A stretch of 64,000 bases of DNA from an uncultured Solirubrobacterales bacterium (GTDB lineage Bacteria > Actinomycetota > Thermoleophilia > Solirubrobacterales > 70-9), in contig CAVUCS010000002.1 of NCBI GenBank assembly GCA_963740065.1, positions 126,858 through 190,857 on the forward strand, given 5' to 3'. The position numbers and the translations under genes were made by a program. This document shows, one piece after another, positions 13,953 to 62,953 of the stretch (positions are counted from its first letter, which is position 1; each line of letters starts with the position of its first letter). The notes below the pieces were generated by a model, which ran no database searches, had not been told where the DNA came from, and saw nothing but the letters and a program-made list of their open reading frames with translations.

Positions 13953-14744
13953 GTGTCCGAGTCTTTCTATGTGTTCGATGACGACCGCTGGGCAGCGACC
14001 GAGCTGACCCGCGGTCCATGGGACCCAGGCGCCCAGCATGCCGGCCCCCCCGCTGCGCTGCTCGGTCGCGAGATTGAGCAGCTGCCTGACGCCGGCGAGT
14101 TCCAGGTCGGCCGCGTTACCTTCGAGATTCTCCGCTCGGTGCCGATCGCGCCGCTGCGGGTGAGTGCCAAGATCCTGCGCCCCGGTCGCCGGGTGCAGCT
14201 GATCGAGGCCTCCCTCAGCGACGACTCCGGCGAAGAGCTGATGCGCGCCACCGCCTGGCGGCTTCGCACGGCGGCGGTCGATCTGCCCGCTGAGGTCGCA
14301 GAGCTGCCTCCACCGCCCCCCGGCCCCGAGCATGGCTCGGGCGTCGGCTTCTTTCCCACCGGTCAAGACGTCGGCTACCACACGGCGATGGAGGTCAGCT
14401 TCATCGAGGGCGGCTTTCTCGAGTCCGGCCCGGCGCTCGCCTGGCTGCGGATGCGCCACCCGCTGGTCCCTGGGGAAAAGCCCTCTCCCTTGCAGCGCAC
14501 CCTGATCGCCGCCGACGTCGGCAACGGGATCAGCGCGGTCCTCGACTATCGCCGCTACCTCTTCATCAATGTCGACTTGACCGTTCACCTCGAGCGCATG
14601 CCCCAGGGGGAGTGGATCTGCGTCGACGCGGTCACCCGGCCTCGTGAGAACGGGATCGGCTCCGCCGAGTCAGAGCTCTCCGATGGTCGAGGTCGGCTTG
14701 GCCGTGCCGTGCAGACGCTGCTGGTCAGCGAGCGCGGCGGCTGA
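13953..14744 (+). CDS. thioesterase-superfamily protein (TesB-like double hotdog)
   Basis: The size and the N-terminal pattern (W..TELTRGPW.....HAGPPAALL) resemble acyl-CoA thioesterase-like proteins. This is a family-level call only. Confidence 0.55.
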   Translation: MSESFYVFDDDRWAATELTRGPWDPGAQHAGPPAALLGREIEQLPDAGEFQVGRVTFEILRSVPIAPLRVSAKILRPGRRVQLIEASLSDDSGEELMRATAWRLRTAAVDLPAEVAELPPPPPGPEHGSGVGFFPTGQDVGYHTAMEVSFIEGGFLESGPALAWLRMRHPLVPGEKPSPLQRTLIAADVGNGISAVLDYRRYLFINVDLTVHLERMPQGEWICVDAVTRPRENGIGSAESELSDGRGRLGRAVQTLLVSERGG

Positions 14745-15897
14745 TCGCCAGCGCGATCGTCGCCGCTGAAACCAGCCCGAAGAGCGAGGCAAAGAGGAAG
14801 GCTCCTTCGTAGCCGACCAGCGCCGCAGCGATACCGGCCAGCGGCGCGCCGAGGCCGACGCCCGCGTCGAAGAAGGCAGTGAAGGTGCCGAGCGCCGCCC
14901 CGCGCCGCGTCTCCGGCACGCGGCCGACGACGATCAGCGACAGCGAGGGGTAGAGGAGGGAGAAAGCGGCACCCATCGCGAGTGCTCCCAGCAGCGCGAC
15001 CGGCAGGCTGTGGGCGAGCGCGATCGTCGCCAGTCCCACCGCCTCGACCAGGGCGGCGACGAACGCGACCCGCTTGGGGCCAATCCGATCCGGGAGGTCA
15101 CCGCCGATCAGGCGGGTCAAGACAACCATCGTCGCGAAGGCTCCGAACACCGTCGCCCCGTGACCGACGTCGCGAGCATCCAAGTGGAGGACGACGAAGG
15201 CGGCGACGGTCGCGTAGCCGATCGAGGCGAGGGCGAGGGCGATGCCGGGGCGCACCGCCTCACGCGCAATCAGCGGGTGGTGCTCGTGCTCGGCGATTGG
15301 CGCCGGGCGAAACGGGTCGGGAAGCCGGAAGGCGAGCAACGCCCCAAGCAGGGGCACCGCGCCGGCGAAGAGCCAAACTGCGGTGTAGCTGCCCGCATGA
15401 AGGATCAGCTCGCCGACCAGGGGGCCGACGCTGAGTCCCGACCAGACCGCCAGGCCGTAGAGGCCGATCACGCGTCCGCGCCGTTCGGGCGGGGCGATGT
15501 CGACGATCCAGGCTGAGCCGGCGGTGAACACCGTTCCCTCACCGGCGCCAAGCACCAGGCGAGAGGCGATCAGTCCCCCGACTCCCAGCGGCAGCAGGTA
15601 CATGAAGCCGGCCACCGCGACCAGGATCGATCCGACCAACACCGCGGGCTTGCGACCTCGTCGGTCGGCAAAGCGGCCGGCGAAGGGCCTCAGCAGCAGG
15701 CCGGTGACGGCGTAGGACCCAACCACGACGCCGACCGCGATGTTGCCTGAGTCGAGCGGCCCGTGCACGTAGCGGGGCAACACCGGCAGGACGGCGCCTA
15801 CCGCGAGCAGGCCGCAGAAGGTGACGGCGAAGATGCCGGCGAAGGCGGCGCCGGGCCTGGCGACGACGGGGGGCGCCGCTTCAGCGGTGGCGCTCAC
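14725..15897 (-). CDS. MFS transporter (12 TM)
   Basis: Highly hydrophobic 390-aa product with an MFS loop motif (GRFADRRGRKP). Confidence 0.8.
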   Translation of the reverse strand: MSATAEAAPPVVARPGAAFAGIFAVTFCGLLAVGAVLPVLPRYVHGPLDSGNIAVGVVVGSYAVTGLLLRPFAGRFADRRGRKPAVLVGSILVAVAGFMYLLPLGVGGLIASRLVLGAGEGTVFTAGSAWIVDIAPPERRGRVIGLYGLAVWSGLSVGPLVGELILHAGSYTAVWLFAGAVPLLGALLAFRLPDPFRPAPIAEHEHHPLIAREAVRPGIALALASIGYATVAAFVVLHLDARDVGHGATVFGAFATMVVLTRLIGGDLPDRIGPKRVAFVAALVEAVGLATIALAHSLPVALLGALAMGAAFSLLYPSLSLIVVGRVPETRRGAALGTFTAFFDAGVGLGAPLAGIAAALVGYEGAFLFASLFGLVSAATIALAISRRAR

Positions 15898-16715
15898 CGA
15901 ACCAGCGCGGCGAGATCGTCGATGACGTGATCGGGGGGCGGGTCGGCGGCCTCCGCGTCCGCCCGCGAGGAGGCGCCGCTGAGAACGAGGATCGTCTCCA
16001 GCCCGGCCCTGCGCCCACCCTCGATGTCGGAGGCGATCCGATCGCCGACCATCGCCACCCTCGCGTTCCGCTGCGACTTACCTCTGTCATGCATAGATAA
16101 GTCGCAGCGGAGCGAGTTGAGGGCGAGGTCGAAGAGGTGGCGTTCGGGCTTGCCCCCGATTGCGGCGCGTTTCCCGGAGGCGGTTTCGACGGCCGCCAGG
16201 GTCGCTCCCGTGCCCGGCAACGCACCCCCCGGCATCGGCAGGGTCGGGTCGCGGCTGGTGGCGAACAGGGCCGCGCCGCCCTGCAGGGCGCGGGTCGCGG
16301 TCGCCAGCTCCGCGTAGTCGAATTCGCGGTGGCCGGAGACGAGCACCGCGTCGGCGCCGTGGGCTTCCTCCCCCTCCAGCAACCTCAGCCCGGTCCCCGC
16401 AATGACCTCCTTGAAACCGGGCGCCCCGATCACGAAGGCCGTGCCGTCGTGCCCGGTTGCCTCCGCGGCGAGTCTGGCGGTCGCGGCCCCCGCCGTCACA
16501 ACCCGATCGTCCGCAATCTCAACTCCCGCATCGCGCAGGCGCGCGGCATAGGCGGAGGGCTTCTTCACCGAGTTGTTGGTGACGAACACAATCTCCGTCC
16601 CCTCCGCAAGCAGCTTCCCCAGGGCCTCGACAGCTCCCGGCACCATCTCGGAGCCTTCCCACACCACACCGTCTAGGTCGACCAGAAACCCGTCGAAGTT
16701 GTCCGCGAGCGCCAT
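15894..16715 (-). CDS. HAD-IIA family hydrolase (NagD-like phosphatase) carrying an in-frame hairpin-repeat insertion
   Basis: Carries the FLVDLDGVVW (DxD), VTNNS, GKP and MVGDRIASDIEGG motifs. The GKP-to-GD spacer contains repeat copy A1 (see findings). Confidence 0.8.
   Translation of the reverse strand: MALADNFDGFLVDLDGVVWEGSEMVPGAVEALGKLLAEGTEIVFVTNNSVKKPSAYAARLRDAGVEIADDRVVTAGAATARLAAEATGHDGTAFVIGAPGFKEVIAGTGLRLLEGEEAHGADAVLVSGHREFDYAELATATRALQGGAALFATSRDPTLPMPGGALPGTGATLAAVETASGKRAAIGGKPERHLFDLALNSLRCDLSMHDRGKSQRNARVAMVGDRIASDIEGGRRAGLETILVLSGASSRADAEAADPPPDHVIDDLAALVR
16064..16114. repeat. family A hairpin repeat, copy A1 (inside the HAD-IIA CDS)
   Basis: CCGCTGCGACTTA (16068-16080) pairs with TAAGTCGCAGCGG (16098-16110), plus outer pairs. 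The apex is CCTCTGTCATGCATAGA. Confidence 0.8.
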
Positions 16716-16873: not shown

Positions 16874-17614
16874 ATGAGCGAGACACAGACAGCGACGCAG
16901 GTAGTGACCGCGAGCGAGGTGACCCGCCGCTACGGCGAGGGTGCCGCCGCGGTCGACGCGCTGGCGGGAGTCAGCACCAATTTCCAGCGTGGGCGCTTCA
17001 CCGCGATCATGGGCCCGTCGGGCTCGGGCAAGTCGACTCTGATGCACATCCTCGCTGGGCTCGACAAGCCAACCTCCGGCACCGTCACCCTCGATGGCGT
17101 CGAGGTAACCGCGCTCGACGACGGTGAGTTGACCCAGCTGCGCCGCGACAAGCTCGGCTTCGTCTTCCAGTTCTTCAACTTGCTGCCGGTGTTGACCGCG
17201 GAAGAGAACCTGGTGCTGCCGCTCTCGATCGCCGGTCGCAAGCCCGACGACGCCTGGGTGGATCAGCTGATCGGCACGGTCGGGCTCGAGGACCGGCGCA
17301 CCCACCGTCCCTCTGAGCTGTCCGGAGGCCAGCAGCAGCGGGTCGCGGTCGCCCGCGCCCTCGTCTCCAGACCCGCGGTCGTCTTCGCCGACGAGCCGAC
17401 CGGCAACCTTGACTCGAAGGCGAGCGGCGATGTTCTGAACTTGCTGCGGGGGGCGGTCGATGAGTTCGGCCAGACGGTGGTGATGGTCACCCACGATCCG
17501 GTTGCCGCCGCCCACGCCGACCGGCTGATCACCCTCCGCGACGGGCAGCTCGTCCACGACGAGGCGCCCGGCTCCGCGGACGAGGTGATCGAGCTGATGA
17601 AGCAGATCGATTAA
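16874..17614 (+). CDS. ABC transporter ATP-binding protein (MacB/LolD/FtsE-like)
   Basis: Walker A GPSGSGKST, signature LSGGQQQRVAVARAL and Walker B VVFADEPTGNLD. Confidence 0.9.
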   Translation: MSETQTATQVVTASEVTRRYGEGAAAVDALAGVSTNFQRGRFTAIMGPSGSGKSTLMHILAGLDKPTSGTVTLDGVEVTALDDGELTQLRRDKLGFVFQFFNLLPVLTAEENLVLPLSIAGRKPDDAWVDQLIGTVGLEDRRTHRPSELSGGQQQRVAVARALVSRPAVVFADEPTGNLDSKASGDVLNLLRGAVDEFGQTVVMVTHDPVAAAHADRLITLRDGQLVHDEAPGSADEVIELMKQID

Positions 17615-17618
17615 GCAG

Positions 17619-20168
17619 GTGACCGGCCTCGCGGTCAAGAGCCTCTGGGCGCGCAAGTTCCGCGCCTTCACCACGACCCTGGCGGTCGTGATCGGCGTCG
17701 CCTTCGTCGCCGGCACCTACATCCTCACCGACACCACCTTCGCCGCCTTCGACGAGATCTTCAGCGACTCGCTGAAAGGGACGAGCGTCGTCGTCACGGC
17801 CAGAGATGCGGTGGAGCAGGATACGGGTGAGATTCCAAGTTTCAGCGCCGCCCTGTTGCCGAAGGTAAGAAGAACCCCGGGGGTGAGACTCGCCGCCGGC
17901 GCGATCTTCACTCCGGGCGGGTTCTTTGACGCCAGAGGCGATGCGATCGGCTCGAGATTTTCACCGAAGTTCATCTCTTCGACCATGCCCGGCGAATTGG
18001 AGTCGCTCACATATGTAGAGGGGAGATCGCCACGCTCACCCGACGAGGCCTCGTTGGACCAGTCGGCGGCGGATGAAGCCGGGATCGGGGTCGGTGACAC
18101 GATCAGACTCGCCTCGGTCAGCCGCGTCAAGAGCTATCGCCTGGTCGGCCTAACCAAGCTCGGCGACACTTCCTTTGGCGGCGCCAGCATCGCCCAGGTG
18201 ACCCTGGGGGAGGCGCAGCGGATCACCGGCAAGCGCGGGCGCTTCGACCAGATCTCGGTTGCGGCCCAGTCGGGCGTTTCGGCGGCGACGCTCAAAGAGC
18301 GGATCCAGCGCGTCGTTCCCCCCTCCGTCCGAGTCGAAACCGCAGAGGAGAACGCCAACCGCTCCTCTGACCAGATCCGCGACAACCTCGGCTTCCTCCG
18401 CATCGCCCTGCTGGTCTTTGCCTTCGTGGCCCTTTTCGTCGGCGCCTTCTTGATCTTCAATACCTTCTCGATCACCGTCGCCCAGCGGATCACCGAGTTC
18501 GGGATGCTGCGCACGCTCGGCGCCGGGCGCGGGCAGATCCTCACCACGGTCGTGGTCGAGGCGCTGGCGATTGGCCTGCTTGGCGCCGTGCTCGGACTCG
18601 CCGCCGGCTTCGGCATCGCCAAGGGGCTGAACGCTCTCTTCGTAGCGATCGGCATCGACCTGCCGACGACGGCGCTGGTGCTGAAGGACCGAACCATCGT
18701 CGCCGCCTTCACGATTGGCATTCTCGTCACTCTCGTCTCCTCGTTCGTGCCGGCGCTGCGCGCCACCCGGGTGCCGCCGATCGCGGCGCTGCAAGCGCTG
18801 GAGATTCCGGTCAGTCGCCGCCGCCGGGCCGTCTACGCGGGGCTGGCGGTCCTGCTCGGTGTCGCCGGCATGGCGATGGTCCTGATCGGACTCTTCGGTG
18901 GCGCCGGCGGAGGCGAGGCGGCGGGGTTGATGGGTGCCGGCGCGGTCGCGGTCGTCCTCGGCGTCTCCCTCTTCAGTCCGCGGCTGGTGCGGCCGCTCGC
19001 CTCAATCGCCGGCTGGCCGCTGCAGCGCATGCGCAAGCTGACCGGGCGCCTCGCTCGCGAGAACACCCAGCGCAATCCCGCTCGCACGGCGGTTACCGCG
19101 GCGGCGCTGATGATCGGCCTCGCCGTGGTCGCCTTTGTCACCGTTTTCGCCGCCGGAATCAAGGGCTCGATCGCCAGCGCGATCGACGACAGCTTCCAGG
19201 GGGAGTTGGTGATCCAGAACAGCGACGGCTTCTCGCCGATCTCCCCTGGCGCCGCGGCGACGGCTCGTCATATTCCCGGGGTGGAGACGGTCTCCACCCT
19301 GCGCGCCACCCAGGCGAAGGTGGAGGGCGCTTCGGGCAAGCCGCGGATTTCGGCACTTGGCCGCGACGCCGGCAGAGTGCTGACCATCGACTGGACGGAG
19401 GGAAGCCCGGCGACGCTGCGTCGCCTCACCGACGGAGAGGTGATCCTCGACAAGTCCTTCGCCTCCTCCAACGGCTTCGAGCTGGGGGACCGGGTCCGTT
19501 TCCTCACCCAGATCGGCAAGCGCCCCACTCTCAGAGTGGTGGGCGAGTTCGAGGACAACGCCGACCTGCTCGGCAGCGCCCTCGTCACGCAGCGCTTGAT
19601 GGCGACCGAATTCGACCAGACCGATGATGTCTTCGATTTCGTCAAGCTGGCGCCGGGAGCGGACGCGAACAGAGTGCAGGCGGCGATCACAGCGGCAATG
19701 GATCGCGCTTTCCCGACCGCGGACGTTCTCAACCAAGCGGAGCTGAAGCAGAATCAGGAAGACCAGGTCAACCAGCTGTTGGGGTTGATCTACGCCCTGC
19801 TCGGGTTGGCCGTGATCGTCTCCCTGTTCGGAATCGCCAACACGCTGGCGCTCTCTATCCATGAGCGCACTCGGGAGCTGGGGATGCTGCGCGCGATTGG
19901 AATGTCCCGCCGCCAGGTGCGGACGATGATTCGCTACGAGGCGGTGATCACGGCCCTGATCGGCGCGATCCTCGGCATGGTGCTCGGCGTGATCTTCGCG
20001 GCGTTGATCGCCCAGCCGCTGAAGGACGAGGGCTTCACCCTCTCCTACCCGATCGGGACGCTGATCGGCCTGCTCGTCTTCGCCGCGATAGCCGGCGTGA
20101 TCGCGGCAATTGCCCCGGCTCGTCGCGCCTCGCGCCTAGATGTCCTGGAGGCGCTGCAGTACGAGTAA
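17619..20168 (+). CDS. ABC transporter permease with two FtsX/MacB-type domains
   Basis: 849 aa with two repeats, each a large extracytoplasmic domain followed by FtsX-like TM bundles. Adjacent to the ATPase. Confidence 0.85.
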   Translation: MTGLAVKSLWARKFRAFTTTLAVVIGVAFVAGTYILTDTTFAAFDEIFSDSLKGTSVVVTARDAVEQDTGEIPSFSAALLPKVRRTPGVRLAAGAIFTPGGFFDARGDAIGSRFSPKFISSTMPGELESLTYVEGRSPRSPDEASLDQSAADEAGIGVGDTIRLASVSRVKSYRLVGLTKLGDTSFGGASIAQVTLGEAQRITGKRGRFDQISVAAQSGVSAATLKERIQRVVPPSVRVETAEENANRSSDQIRDNLGFLRIALLVFAFVALFVGAFLIFNTFSITVAQRITEFGMLRTLGAGRGQILTTVVVEALAIGLLGAVLGLAAGFGIAKGLNALFVAIGIDLPTTALVLKDRTIVAAFTIGILVTLVSSFVPALRATRVPPIAALQALEIPVSRRRRAVYAGLAVLLGVAGMAMVLIGLFGGAGGGEAAGLMGAGAVAVVLGVSLFSPRLVRPLASIAGWPLQRMRKLTGRLARENTQRNPARTAVTAAALMIGLAVVAFVTVFAAGIKGSIASAIDDSFQGELVIQNSDGFSPISPGAAATARHIPGVETVSTLRATQAKVEGASGKPRISALGRDAGRVLTIDWTEGSPATLRRLTDGEVILDKSFASSNGFELGDRVRFLTQIGKRPTLRVVGEFEDNADLLGSALVTQRLMATEFDQTDDVFDFVKLAPGADANRVQAAITAAMDRAFPTADVLNQAELKQNQEDQVNQLLGLIYALLGLAVIVSLFGIANTLALSIHERTRELGMLRAIGMSRRQVRTMIRYEAVITALIGAILGMVLGVIFAALIAQPLKDEGFTLSYPIGTLIGLLVFAAIAGVIAAIAPARRASRLDVLEALQYE

Positions 20169-20175
20169 CTCCGCC

Positions 20176-20218
20176 CCGCTGCGACTTATCCCTGTATGTC
20201 AGAGATAAGTCGCAGCGG
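20176..20218. repeat. family A hairpin repeat, copy A2
   Basis: CCGCTGCGACTTATC / GATAAGTCGCAGCGG with inner CTG/CAG and a TATGT loop. It lies between the convergent ABC permease and esterase genes. Confidence 0.85.
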
Positions 20219-20222
20219 AACG

Positions 20223-21284
20223 TTAGGCCAGGCCCATGCGCAGGGCGCCCGCGGCCTCTGACATAGCCGCCCGGGCTGAGCGGCTGACCGCCGTCATGTT
20301 GGCGAAGCCGTGGATCAGGCCCGAGTGGCGCCGTAGCGCGACGTGTGTGCCCGCCTCCCGCATCCGCTTCGCGTAAGCCTCGCCTTCGTCGCGCAGGGGG
20401 TCGAAGCCGGCCGTGGCGACGTAGGCGGGGGCGAGGCCGGAGAGGTTTTCGGCCCGCAGCACCGAGACTCGTGGGTCCGATCCGTCCTCCTCATTGGGCA
20501 GGTAGTTGTGGTCGAACCAGTCCATGTCGCCCGCCGTAAGCAGGAACCCATTGGCGAACAGCCGCCGTGAGTCTCCACCCGTGAAGTCGGCCACGGGGTA
20601 GATCAAGAGCTGCATCGCCGGAGTCGTTCCGCCGTCGTCGCGGGCGAGCAGGCTGGTGACCGCCGCTAGGTTGCCGCCGGCGCTGTCGCCGCCGACGGCG
20701 ACGCGGTTTGGGTCGACTCCCAGGTCCCCGGCGTTCGCGGTTGCCCAGCGGAAGGCAGCCAAGGCGTCGTCCACGGCGGCGGGGAACGGGTGCTCCGGGG
20801 CCAGCCGGTAGTCGACGGAGAGGACTGGGAGCTCCGCGTTGGCGGCGAGGAAGCGGGCGGTGGAATCGTGGGTGTCGAGGTCGCCGATCACCCAGCCTCC
20901 GCCATGGAAGTAGACGAATAGCGGCGAGGGTCCCGCGGCGGAGTTGCTCGGCGTGTACAGCCGGGCGGGGATCGCCCCCGCCGGCCCCGGAATATCCAAG
21001 CGCTCGACTCGATCCATCGGCAGGGGAAGCCCGGCCACTGTTGCCGCTCCGCGCCGGTTTTCCGCCCGCGCCCTCTCTGGACTCCTGCGCCCCTCTCCGG
21101 TTACGGAAGCGTCGCCCGCCGCGGCCGACAATCGTAAGAAGGCATGGATGTCGCTTTCCAACACCTGCCCGTCGATTTCCGGGGGCGCCCCAAACAACAA
21201 TCGTTGGGCCCCGGCCGGCAACCCGCACGCGGCCCGCAGGATCCGATGCTCCGTGCGCACGGAGAGGCGAGGGAGGGCGGCCAC
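20223..21284 (-). CDS. alpha/beta hydrolase, hormone-sensitive-lipase-type esterase
   Basis: HGGGW oxyanion motif, GDSAGG nucleophile elbow and a C-terminal HGF. The exact start is uncertain. Confidence 0.8.
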   Translation of the reverse strand: MAALPRLSVRTEHRILRAACGLPAGAQRLLFGAPPEIDGQVLESDIHAFLRLSAAAGDASVTGEGRRSPERARAENRRGAATVAGLPLPMDRVERLDIPGPAGAIPARLYTPSNSAAGPSPLFVYFHGGGWVIGDLDTHDSTARFLAANAELPVLSVDYRLAPEHPFPAAVDDALAAFRWATANAGDLGVDPNRVAVGGDSAGGNLAAVTSLLARDDGGTTPAMQLLIYPVADFTGGDSRRLFANGFLLTAGDMDWFDHNYLPNEEDGSDPRVSVLRAENLSGLAPAYVATAGFDPLRDEGEAYAKRMREAGTHVALRRHSGLIHGFANMTAVSRSARAAMSEAAGALRMGLA

Positions 21285-31539: not shown

Positions 31540-32598
31540 GTGAGTCTCGCCGGCCTCGAAAAGTGCACCGAGCATCAGCCGCGGGTGCGGGTGGCGTTGA
31601 GCGCGGCACTACAAGCCGGCCCCACACACGCCTACCTGTTCCGCGGGCCACGCGGCTCGGGGAAGAGGGCCGCGGCCCGCGCCTTCGCCGCTGAGATTCT
31701 CGCCGGCTCCTCCGAAGACGCCGACGATGCCCGCCGCCGCGCCCTGCTCGACCCTTCGCCTCACCCGGACCTCGTCTGGATCGCCCCGCGCGGCGCCCAG
31801 CATCTGGTCGAGGAGGTGCGAGAGGGGGTGATCCGCGCCGCCGCCTACCGCCCCTTCGAAGGGGGCAAGCGCGTCTTCGTGATCGAGGCCGCCGAGGCGA
31901 TGAGAGACGAGAGCCAGAACGCGTTGCTCAAGACCTTGGAGGAGCCCCCCGATTACGCCCACCTGATCTTGCTCAGCGCCGAGCCGGAGCTCCTCCTCGA
32001 AACGGTCGCATCCCGCTGCCAGACGGTCGACTTCGCTCCGCTTCCGGTCACGGCGGTCGAGACGGCGCTCGAAGGGGTCGCTGACCCGCATGAGGTCGCC
32101 GCCGCCGCTCGCCTGTCGGCCGGCGACCTCGAACGCGCCCGCTTCTTGCTCACTGCACCAGGAAGGAAGCTGCGCGCCGCGGCTGAGCGCTCGGCTTGGA
32201 AGCAGCTGCTCAAATCCGCGGAAGAGGTGGGCGAGGATGCCGAGGCGGCGACTCGTGAGGCGTTGGAGGAGGAGAGAGCGGCCGGGGTGAAGCGTTCCGC
32301 CAGAGACGTCAACGACGAGGCGCGGCGCGCGGCGCGGCGCCGCCGCACGGAGGTCCTCGACCTCGGGTTGGAGTTGGCCGCCGCCTGGTTCCGCGACTTG
32401 GCCGTCATCGCTTCCGATGCTCCCGAGGTCGCCTACAACCAGGACCGCCTCGACCAGCTTCAGGCCCGGGCGGAGGAGATCGACCTGGCGGAAGCCCGCC
32501 GCGCCGCCGAGCTGATCCAGGACACCCGTCGCCGCCTCGACCTCAACGTCTCCGAGGAGCTGGCCTTAGAGGCGCTATCGGTTCGCCTTATGGGGTGA
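31540..32598 (+). CDS. holB: DNA polymerase III subunit delta prime
   Basis: AAA+-like HAYLFRGPRGSGKR, the NALLKTLEEPP box, and position downstream of tmk. Confidence 0.8.
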   Translation: MSLAGLEKCTEHQPRVRVALSAALQAGPTHAYLFRGPRGSGKRAAARAFAAEILAGSSEDADDARRRALLDPSPHPDLVWIAPRGAQHLVEEVREGVIRAAAYRPFEGGKRVFVIEAAEAMRDESQNALLKTLEEPPDYAHLILLSAEPELLLETVASRCQTVDFAPLPVTAVETALEGVADPHEVAAAARLSAGDLERARFLLTAPGRKLRAAAERSAWKQLLKSAEEVGEDAEAATREALEEERAAGVKRSARDVNDEARRAARRRRTEVLDLGLELAAAWFRDLAVIASDAPEVAYNQDRLDQLQARAEEIDLAEARRAAELIQDTRRRLDLNVSEELALEALSVRLMG

Positions 32599-32640
32599 GT
32601 GAGGTTGACCACCCATAGCGGGGGTCAACCTCACTCACCC
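32593..32640. repeat. hairpin H1 (18-bp perfect stem) between convergent holB and the DUF2304 gene
   Basis: GGGTGAGTGAGGTTGACC-ACCCATAGCGGG-GGTCAACCTCACTCACCC. Both stop codons lie in the arms, so it is a plausible bidirectional terminator. Confidence 0.8.
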
Positions 32641-38234: not shown

Positions 38235-38301
38235 GCGCAACCCTCGGCCTTCATGCCCCCAACCTACCCGAGCCGCGGGCATCGTTTTCACGTCTCGCAA
38301 C

Positions 38302-38350
38302 GGTGAGTTCGTCTTTGTTCCCGGTATGCGGGAACAAAGACGAACTCACC
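38302..38350. repeat. hairpin H2 (21-bp perfect stem, GGTATGC loop) in a divergent promoter region
   Basis: GGTGAGTTCGTCTTTGTTCCC-GGTATGC-GGGAACAAAGACGAACTCACC, between the MFS (minus) and MBL hydrolase (plus) genes. Confidence 0.85.
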
Positions 38351-38385
38351 GGGCGGCGGGCGGCGGGGATTGAGAGGATGGGTGG

Positions 38386-43851: not shown

Positions 43852-43902
43852 CGTTCCGCTGCGAGTTATGACTGCTATGCAGAGATAACTCGCAGCGGAA
43901 CG
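43852..43902. repeat. family A hairpin repeat, copy A3
   Basis: CGTTCCGCTGCGAGTTAT / ATAACTCGCAGCGGAACG (18 bp), inner CTGC-TAT-GCAG. It begins 2 nt after the efeB stop, upstream of recQ. Confidence 0.85.
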
Positions 43903-47715: not shown

Positions 47716-47757
47716 CGCGCTGCAGGCTATCGACCCCTGCCGCCCCGCCCGCCGAGA

Positions 47758-47810
47758 CCCAGGTGAAACGCATACGCCGGCTATTTCACCGCGTATGCGT
47801 TTCACCTGGG
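47758..47810. repeat. hairpin H3 (20-bp perfect stem) between divergent zwf and gnd
   Basis: CCCAGGTGAAACGCATACGC-CGGCTATTTCACC-GCGTATGCGTTTCACCTGGG. Confidence 0.85.
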
Positions 47811-47832
47811 TGGTGGCCAGTAGGGTTGGGGC

Positions 47833-50991: not shown

Positions 50992-51570
50992 ATGGATGCG
51001 CGGGTTTGGCTGACGGGAAGCGATGGGGCGCCGATCTCGGTGGCGCTCGCTGAGCGGACGGTGGTCGGCCGCGATCCCGAGGCGGACATCTCCCTCGATG
51101 ACGAAGCGGTTTCCTGGCACCACCTCGAGATTGAGGATCGCGGCGGTGTCTTGATGGCGACCGATCTCGACAGCCGCAACGGCACTGTGTTGAACGGCGA
51201 GCCGCTCGACCGGCCGCGGCGGCTGCGCGACGGTGACGTCCTCACCCTTGGCGAGCACCGCCTGGAGGTCTCGGACAAGCTGCCCGGGCGGGCCGGCGCC
51301 ACCGTGCCCGTCGCCGAGCCTTCCGTTCCGCTCAGCGAGGAGGAGCGGGCAACGGCCACGGCGCTGGTCGCCCCCTACCGCAGTGAGGGCGCCTTCGCCG
51401 GTCGCCCCGCCACCCGAGCCGAGATCGCCGAAGCGCTGCACGTCAGCGAGCGGACCGCCCAGCGCCGCCTCGACGCCCTCGCCGCAAAGCTCGACATTCC
51501 CGGCGACTCCGGTCGCGAGCGCCCCCGCCTGATTGCCGCCCGCGTGATCGAGCTCGGCCTGGACCGCTGA
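50992..51570 (+). CDS. FHA-domain protein with a C-terminal HTH
   Basis: FHA core (VGRDPEADISLDDEAVSWHHLEI...SRNGTVLNG) and a C-terminal HTH-like segment (RAEIAEALHVSERTAQRRLDAL). Confidence 0.75.
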   Translation: MDARVWLTGSDGAPISVALAERTVVGRDPEADISLDDEAVSWHHLEIEDRGGVLMATDLDSRNGTVLNGEPLDRPRRLRDGDVLTLGEHRLEVSDKLPGRAGATVPVAEPSVPLSEEERATATALVAPYRSEGAFAGRPATRAEIAEALHVSERTAQRRLDALAAKLDIPGDSGRERPRLIAARVIELGLDR

Positions 51571-51616
51571 GTTTGTCGTTTGGGGTCATATTGCCCTCCA
51601 AACGACAAACTCAGCG
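51565..51616. repeat. hairpin H4 (19-bp stem) overlapping the FHA-gene stop codon
   Basis: CGCTGAGTTTGTCGTTTGG-GGTCATATTGCCCT-CCAAACGACAAACTCAGCG. The TGA of the FHA gene is at 51568-51570, in the left arm. Confidence 0.85.
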
Positions 51617-58760: not shown

Positions 58761-58771
58761 CCCAACCGACG

Positions 58772-58818
58772 TTCCGCTGCGACTTATCCCTGTATGTCAG
58801 GGATAAGTCGCAGCGGAA
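58772..58818. repeat. family A hairpin repeat, copy A4
   Basis: TTCCGCTGCGACTTATCCCTG-TATGT-CAGGGATAAGTCGCAGCGGAA, a 21-bp perfect stem between tal and pgi. Confidence 0.9.
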
Positions 58819-58824
58819 GGCTTC

Positions 58825-61842: not shown

Positions 61843-61885
61843 CTGTGTCGCCTTTGTATCGGTATGCGAAACAAAGGCGACACAG
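61843..61885. repeat. hairpin H5 (15-bp stem, GGTATGC apex) between cydA and cydB
   Basis: CTGTGTCGCCTTTGT-ATCGGTATGCGAA-ACAAAGGCGACACAG. Homologous to H2 (shared CGYCTTTGT..GGTATGC..ACAAAGRCG). Confidence 0.85.
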
Positions 61886-62902: not shown

Positions 62903-62953
62903 CGTTCCGCTTGGCCTTTTCCCGGACATACAGGGAAAAGGCAAAGCGGAACG
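62903..62953. repeat. family A-related hairpin repeat, copy A5 (same outer stem, different inner stem)
   Basis: CGTTCCGCTTGGCCTTTTCCC-GGACATACA-GGGAAAAGGCAAAGCGGAACG, 20 of 21 positions paired, directly after the cydB stop. Confidence 0.8.

Follow-up and report, generated by a model that had tools for sequence, protein, structure and literature searches.

A 51-nt palindrome, CGTTCCGCTGCGACTTACCTCTGTCATGCATAGATAAGTCGCAGCGGAGCG, occupies positions 16064-16114 of the window (the whole stretch of 64,000 nt analysed here, from an uncultured Solirubrobacterales bacterium) and lies within a minus-strand gene for an HAD-IIA phosphatase. It is one member of a dispersed hairpin repeat family with four to five copies in the window. 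Very probably, the enzyme encoded by the HAD gene is functional and carries this copy as a translated passenger in a loop that tolerates it; as judged from the sequence, the HAD protein is presumably made and active. The original prediction compared this situation with that of Rickettsia palindromic elements (RPEs), and the comparison holds with respect to the dispersed family, the in-frame copies in several genes and the fold-compatible insert. No Rickettsia-like coding palindrome was found published for this bacterial group in the literature searched, and the present case documents, outside Rickettsia and Proteobacteria, the translation of selfish or structural palindromes within working genes.

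The palindrome and its host gene

The features of the HAD locus are as follows.

16064-16114, read on the minus strand: palindromic repeat copy of family A, TGCGAC subfamily, translated in frame as S-LRCDLSMHDRGKSQRN-A
16068-16080, plus strand: left arm CCGCTGCGACTTA, 13 nt, perfect complement of the right arm
16098-16110, plus strand: right arm TAAGTCGCAGCGG
16052-16126: extended imperfect palindrome with 35-nt arms, the outer stem CCCTC/GAGGG lying around the core
15894-16715, minus strand: HAD-IIA (NagD/glycerol-phosphate-phosphatase-like) gene, 273 aa, intact as judged by Pfam, motifs and structure
14725-15897, minus strand: MFS transporter gene, its GTG start overlapping the HAD stop by 4 nt, syntenic in relatives
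16874-20168, plus strand: divergent genes for an ABC ATPase and a MacB-type permease, conserved neighbours

The palindrome is wholly contained in the ORF at 15894-16715, which runs across it as ...LALNS LRCDLSMHDRGKSQRN ARVAMVGD... and meets no stop. Sequence, arms and translation all agreed with the in-frame location proposed at the outset, and the translation LALNS-LRCDLSMHDRGKSQRN-ARVAMVGD was recovered as given, with the frame preserved and stop-free. The folding energy of the 75-nt segment 16052-16126 was -43.5 kcal/mol, and the outer stem CCCTC/GAGGG recurred in L020, L021 and L024, the insert-bearing orthologues nearest to this one. The spacer between the GKP and GD motifs was 33 residues, as predicted; among the 120 closest homologues, 109 had a spacer of 21, where about 20 had been expected. 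Measured from K to G, the distance was 36 residues in the window protein versus 24 in 109/120 homologues, i.e. 12 residues longer. The extra residues were also absent from solved NagD/PDXP-type structures, and the sequences of PDB homologues gap this segment. The net gain at the HAD site of the window genome was 36 nt and not a clean 51 nt, indicating that about five native codons were lost or replaced.

Pfam matches of the HAD ORF were to Hydrolase_6 (6e-27) and Hydrolase_like (4e-22), and its closest named relatives were 'HAD-IIA family hydrolase [Solirubrobacterales bacterium]'. The motifs DLDG 13-16 (D13, D15), T46, K189, G224-D225 and D230 were all invariant. An AlphaFold2 (AF2) model built from 60 homologues gave a mean pLDDT of 88.8 and a pTM of 0.87. 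The top Foldseek match of this model was the glycerol-phosphate phosphatase Rv1692 (4i9f, TM 0.84), and the top matches were all of the NagD family. Assignment to the HAD-IIA class, for which the C2 cap architecture is part of the criterion, follows from motifs I-IV (DxDG, T/S, K, GDxxxD), the Pfam pair and the NagD-family structural matches. The HAD and MFS genes are probably co-transcribed because of the overlap between the GTG start and the HAD stop.

In the AF2 model, the insert was flanked by helix 192-203, which follows the motif-III lysine, and strand 220-224, which carries motif IV, and is predicted to form the loop joining the two; residues 206-210 have pLDDT values under 50. As strand 220-224 ends in the motif-IV aspartates, the insert would be placed at the far end of this strand, in the core Rossmannoid domain and not in the cap; the fold topology points to a surface location. 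A cap or loop region had been named beforehand; the model supported the loop, and the topology of the HAD fold speaks against the cap. The modelled loop, its low pLDDT and the gap in PDB homologues are consistent with the proposal that the palindrome is tolerated as a fold-compatible loop insertion. The copy would add a net 12 residues to a loop of the HAD core domain, the peptide being a passenger.

The same gene had alternatively been suggested to be a recently disrupted, still-open pseudogene, for which the removal or replacement of native codons by the insert and its low AF2 confidence could be taken as signs. Comparison with three syntenic insert-bearing orthologues (dS 0.4-1.0), however, gave dN/dS ratios of 0.14-0.25 upstream and 0.08-0.14 downstream of the insert, indicative of purifying selection on both sides, and the pseudogene reading was rejected on this ground, together with the conserved motifs, as most improbable. 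All motifs are intact in the window protein, about 26 of the 27 assemblies with an insert have an undamaged allele in spite of this level of dS, and a search of the genome for a second HAD-IIA gene gave none, 15894-16715 being the sole copy. An assembly artefact is unlikely, since the insert was present in at least 27 independent assemblies.

The repeat family and its reading frames

The arm of the HAD palindrome was found eight times (four palindromes) in the window at no more than two mismatches, versus 2.1 expected. The window belongs to a small soil actinobacterial genome (G000; 2.26 Mb, 10 contigs, 67% G+C, 95.6% complete), in which 36 exact-arm palindromes were detected against none with the reversed control pattern; under looser criteria the number rose to about 62-65 copies, versus 3 in the reversed genome. 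The profile of 62 copies bounded the unit as CG plus 47 nt plus CG, 51 nt in total, with the consensus termini CGTTCCGC...GCGGAACG, i.e. CG(T/C)TCCGC...GCGGA(A/G)CG. Subfamilies were set apart by paired changes in the middle of the stem, and comprised TGCGAC (43 copies), TGCGAG (10 copies), TGTTCC (5 copies) and TTTGCC/TTGGCC (4 copies). The following copies of the window are intergenic, and no strand is assigned to them.

20172-20222: copy between two convergent stop codons; empty site in G001
43852-43902: copy of the TGCGAG subfamily, with a compensated C/G swap
58770-58820: copy with a perfect 21-bp stem
62903-62953: copy of the TTGGCC/TTTGCC subfamily, with the same termini and loop and another middle stem

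Most copies are located just after stop codons, the intragenic share being about 10-15%. Of 61 copies, 27 were situated within 15 nt of the point where a long ORF of high GC3 ends, versus 3% of random positions (15-fold enrichment). Neither a shared target motif nor a consistent target-site duplication was detected across the flanks of the 62 copies, which were weakly C-rich on the left and weakly G-rich on the right. The right flanks are not T-rich and so lack the T-run of an intrinsic terminator; the copies may serve as an actinobacterial terminator of the type without U-tract. Rfam gave no family at gathering score in the window, the matches below it being generic eukaryotic miRNA-precursor hairpins, and the literature searched contained no report of palindromic repeats in Solirubrobacterales. 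Perfect or near-perfect hairpins of 19-23 bp with unrelated stems were also observed in the window, at 38301-38351, 47757-47811, 51565-51616, 61843-61885 and 32593-32640; these are probably other hairpin repeat families or terminators.

The family is patchy among relatives, with 61 copies in G000 and 52 in G002 and none in the congener G001. G042, G072, G242, G181 and G365 are also rich in the repeat, and G251, G293 and G167 are free of it. At the place in G001 orthologous to copy 20172, exactly about 58 nt are absent between the convergent stops. This comparison of an occupied with an empty site was compatible with a TA duplication; there was no consistent TA in the 62 flanks. At window 20166-20228, the plus-strand gene of G001 ends at a single TAG; the insertion in the window genome is flanked by TAA and TTA-G, so that each gene retains its own stop, and the junction is a TA..TA ambiguity.

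The unit of 17 codons is open in frame 1 (17 residues) and frame 3 (16 residues), and frame 2 meets TAA. As the unit is palindromic, the same two of three frames are open on the other strand. Translation could therefore continue through any copy that insertion or conversion has placed in a tolerant region of a gene, and this design of the element, 17 codons with two of three frames open, would explain its tolerance. At least five other genes also contained an in-frame copy, and in each of them Pfam domains extended across the copy or lay beside it.

Residues 289-305 of hydantoinase B: in-frame copy, a single Pfam match over 56-567 running across the insert
PMT_2/TMEM260-like membrane protein: in-frame copy, Pfam domains spanning or flanking
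3-hydroxyacyl-CoA dehydrogenase: in-frame copy, Pfam domains spanning or flanking
GalT: in-frame copy, Pfam domains spanning or flanking
Isochorismate-synthase-like protein: in-frame copy, Pfam domains spanning or flanking

Four more in-gene candidates appeared coding by eye, without domain support. For annotation, odd loops of 12-17 residues in Solirubrobacterales proteins, of the LRCD..KSQRN or RSAAT..ISRSGT type, would be repeat-derived and not functional motifs. At G000:C1:94032-94077, the ORF for the TypA/BipA GTPase runs across a family copy and extends about 80 codons past BipA_C, which could be a C-terminal extension or the result of a lost stop codon.

Occupation of the same gene sites in relatives

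An insert at the same HAD site was found in 8 of the 120 closest homologues, and the DNA was a hairpin in every case; the insert was not found in the orthologue of the congener G001, where the loop reads RKLIGEAE, nor in most orthologues. An HAD orthologue was carried by 95 of the 401 genomes from the same GTDB family, and 92 of these orthologues were extracted and tabulated. The insert was present in 20 of these 92, namely G000 (genus g1), G042 (g35), G175 (g46), G072 (g65) and 16 species of g63, and, apart from g65, represented by a single genome, all of these genera also had insert-less members. In all, about 27 HAD orthologues from five genera are occupied at the identical codon position, the orthology of the compared loci being indicated by the conserved ABC ATPase and MacB neighbours. 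The extra residues are thus not unique to this genome, a point that had been raised as a question. All orthologues bearing the peptide have the palindrome, and no case was observed of the same peptide encoded without it.

When the 27 in-gene inserts were aligned, 84% of cells paired, versus 35-48% in slid controls, and 15 of 20 stem pairs had changes on both sides. The changes in the arms were nonsynonymous but compensatory (D to S, S to E, C to G), altering the peptide yet keeping the pairs, which argues that pairing of the DNA or RNA hairpin, and not the amino acid sequence, is conserved. The net length of the insert varies by lineage from +12 to +18 aa. Stability of the hairpin followed no obvious trend, by eye, with the copy number of the family in insert-bearing genomes.

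The stem of the insert often corresponds to the repeats resident in the same genome. Along the 45 nt matched, the HAD insert of G042 does not differ from another copy in that genome, and the HAD insert of G072 carries the inner stem GCCCC...GGGGC typical of G072. Within g63, the CCTGTTCC...GGAACAGG type is limited to G242, G352, G401, G365, G324, G395 and G377, and all of these seven except G242 have an HAD insert with the TGTTCC-type stem, perfect CCTGTTCC...GGAACAGG being present in G352 and G365; the insert of G242 has another stem (GGTGGGAC). Copies of the GTGGTTCC...GGAACCAC type are numerous in G221, G181, G309, G285 and G277, whose HAD inserts are of the same type, but this association is weaker, the type being found also in other genomes including the insert-less G232 and G260. 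Insert-less genomes of g63 have mostly 0-2 family copies, with the exception of G070, G232 and G260.

HAD trees were constructed by FastTree and treekit with the insert masked. A single clade for the nine insert-bearing HAD alleles was rejected by the AU test (p=1.6e-4); a clade of P0001-P0003 alone was not rejected (p=0.39). In the 92-genome tree, at least seven changes were forced by well-supported branches alone. Since the insert-bearing HAD alleles are non-monophyletic, a single insertion followed by simple vertical inheritance fails. Insert-less alleles nested among the insert-bearing ones retain the ancestral loop, for example GGAERV in G407.

One ancient insertion inherited by descent, followed by several losses, is improbable. 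In such a case the hairpin would be kept because it serves the HAD-MFS operon locally; it might be an attenuator within the operon, for example, or act as a signal for RNA processing or stabilization, or bind a protein. Occupation of the same codon position in all five genera, the maintenance of the hairpin with abundant compensatory changes and its retention where family copies are few (7 in G317 and 5 in G130) agree with a common origin and a function in place, as do the location of the family at gene ends like terminators or REPs and the overlap of the downstream MFS gene with the HAD stop. Each loss, however, must restore the roughly five ancestral codons that are missing from insert-bearing alleles, and the stem switches to the resident subfamily instead of drifting freely. 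Moreover, most orthologous operons are without the hairpin, and it is degenerate in G150, where the gene has an in-frame stop, and in P0109. The degenerate hairpin of the G150 orthologue (locus L108) is accompanied by an in-frame TGA. In the hydantoinase B gene of G089 (locus L127), a left-arm remnant, PFRCSLP, is all that is left of the insert, and the match contains two TGA codons. Both loci look like decaying copies in broken genes.

Hydantoinase B provided a second shared site. The insert was present at the same place in G000, G002, G042 and G072, in addition to the remnant in G089, and was absent from hydantoinase B of G001, G015, G175, G335, G356, G048 and G091. The insert of G042 is a clean addition of 17 codons, and the congeners G000 and G002 hold different subfamilies at this site. 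A single clade of insert-bearing hydantoinase B alleles was rejected by the AU test (p=0.002).

Recurrent site-specific insertion is a possible, if rather doubtful, explanation of these patterns. The HAD and hydantoinase B sites would then be integration hot spots, at which each lineage received a copy from its own repeats, and the native site might be recognised as a small palindrome with a base resembling the termini of the element. Rejection of one clade for both genes, the number of changes forced by the HAD tree, the ancestral loop of nested insert-less alleles, the varying net insert lengths and the match of inserts to resident variants are all as expected from repeated insertion. The native sites also contain mini-palindromes, TCGGC-NNN-GCCGA or CGCTCGGC-GGC-GCCGAGCG, which may be compared with TCCGC...GCGGA of the element. 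The 62 genomic copies without common flanking motif are, however, hard to square with specificity at the codon level; the likeness of the mini-palindromes comes from two sites and from GC-rich Gly/Ala codons and may be due to chance, and the gene trees are short and resolved only in part.

For the preferred reading, that of a translated passenger belonging to a dispersed REP/MITE-like hairpin family of the Solirubrobacterales lineage, the HAD site would be an old or preferred 'slot', of which the occupant is repeatedly exchanged. Ectopic gene conversion between copies or re-insertion could carry out this exchange and would leave the hairpin intact and similar to the current resident variant. 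We infer that exchange between copies, and not selection on the peptide, accounts for the persistence of the hairpin and for its resemblance to the resident variant.

Exchange of occupants and comparison with known systems

Turnover of the family was compared between G002 and G000 using 34 G002 copies with both flanks mappable in G000. The site in G000 was occupied in 17 of the 34 cases and empty in the other 17, two of the 'empty' sites containing a different hairpin family. At occupied shared sites, the identity of the central 23 nt was bimodal: nine pairs were at or above 0.83, five or six did not exceed the non-orthologous baseline of 0.685, and one was flipped. This bimodality suggests that the sites persist and that their occupants are sometimes replaced or inverted.

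At G000:C6:113232-113390 and G000:C3:22442-22518, a hairpin GGTGCAACGCAAACGA...TTTGCGTTGCACC is located where G002 has a family-A palindrome, indicating that one intergenic slot holds different hairpin families depending on the species. G000:C6:97382-97443 and the G002 locus L134 have the same sequence with the asymmetric centre flipped (GTATGT versus ACATAC, with the inner arms). Such a flipped centre is what would be expected if the two arms of a hairpin or cruciform recombined.

A more general model, in which heritable slots, some of them codon-precise within genes, have occupants that are actively exchanged, flipped or overwritten without a RAYT or a classical transposase, is put forward as a speculation with a low chance of being correct. 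Candidate routes of exchange are conversion templated by a hairpin or cruciform and template switching between stems that share base pairs. If the model is true, slot exchange is a mode of propagation undescribed for REPs, RPEs and MITEs, and explains perfect stems without selection on each copy. The comparative data, i.e. two shared gene sites in non-monophyletic lineages, matching to residents, 50% turnover between congeners and bimodal occupants, make the movement of the repeats and the perfection of their stems a testable question.

RPE-1 to RPE-10 are described, in the account of Ogata et al. 2000 given in PMC10969869, as palindromic repeats of about 100-150 bp located in frame in Rickettsia genes. 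By this account, the two systems are alike in that dispersed palindromes lie in frame in unrelated housekeeping genes and are translated at fold-compatible positions, with no transposase evident in either. The repeat described here is of 51 nt instead of about 100-150 bp, and its hosts are free-living high-GC Solirubrobacterales (Actinomycetota), whereas Rickettsia is an obligate intracellular alphaproteobacterium. The family also differs from RPEs in that its copies are mostly intergenic at gene 3' ends, with about 10-15% in genes, and in that compensatory changes keep the hairpin intact across species, its form following that of the resident variant. Given the 51-nt unit and the Solirubrobacterales host, and with the RPEs compared by description, the element can be said to work like an RPE but not to be a member of the RPEs.

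GTAG- and CGTC-tagged intragenic REPs (Di Nocera et al. 2013, PMC3733652) are likewise short hairpin repeats found mostly after genes and in part within coding regions. The CGTC class also has no dedicated transposase, and both those REPs and the present family have species-specific variants of stem and loop (PMC3733652). In contrast, neither the GTAG nor the CGTC tag is present on the termini CGTTCCGC...GCGGAACG, and the single stem of 21-23 bp differs from the 8-13-bp stem or dimer of those REPs (PMC3733652). Actinobacteria are mentioned nowhere in the text of this survey (PMC3733652).

REPs are similar to the family in their mostly extragenic location at gene 3' ends (here 27/61 within 15 nt versus 3% at random). 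As for the REPIN/RAYT systems of Pseudomonas and E. coli, a 'master' variant exists within a genome, orthologous positions persist, and relatives differ; the element here is not composed of two inverted REPs. The RAYT gene (Y1 HUH transposase, PF01797) gave no match in the window's own genome and 14 relatives, 15 genomes of which 11 have the repeat family and several are single-contig, and control genomes were positive. MITEs with a TA duplication (Correia/IS630-type) are small, fully inverted-repeat elements, as is the present unit, for which the one empty site was compatible with a TA duplication. The family differs from MITEs in the absence of a consistent TA in the 62 flanks and of a parent IS or a multi-copy transposase gene in the genome; self-comparison of the genome gave neither a multi-copy IS-like repeat nor a parent IS with matching termini. 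Taken together, the lack of RAYT and of a multi-copy IS indicates that this is not a REP-RAYT system and that no MITE parent is evident. With neither a consistent target-site duplication across copies nor a transposase candidate found in the searches for Y1/RAYT genes and multi-copy repeats, mobility of the family is deduced solely from the presence and absence of copies.

Within G000, contigs C7 and C9 duplicate C1:4959-10405 and C4:159022-173260 at 96% identity, which suggests strain heterogeneity or assembly redundancy. C6:62670-85982 contains three tandem copies of about 6.5-6.9 kb with about 99% identity.
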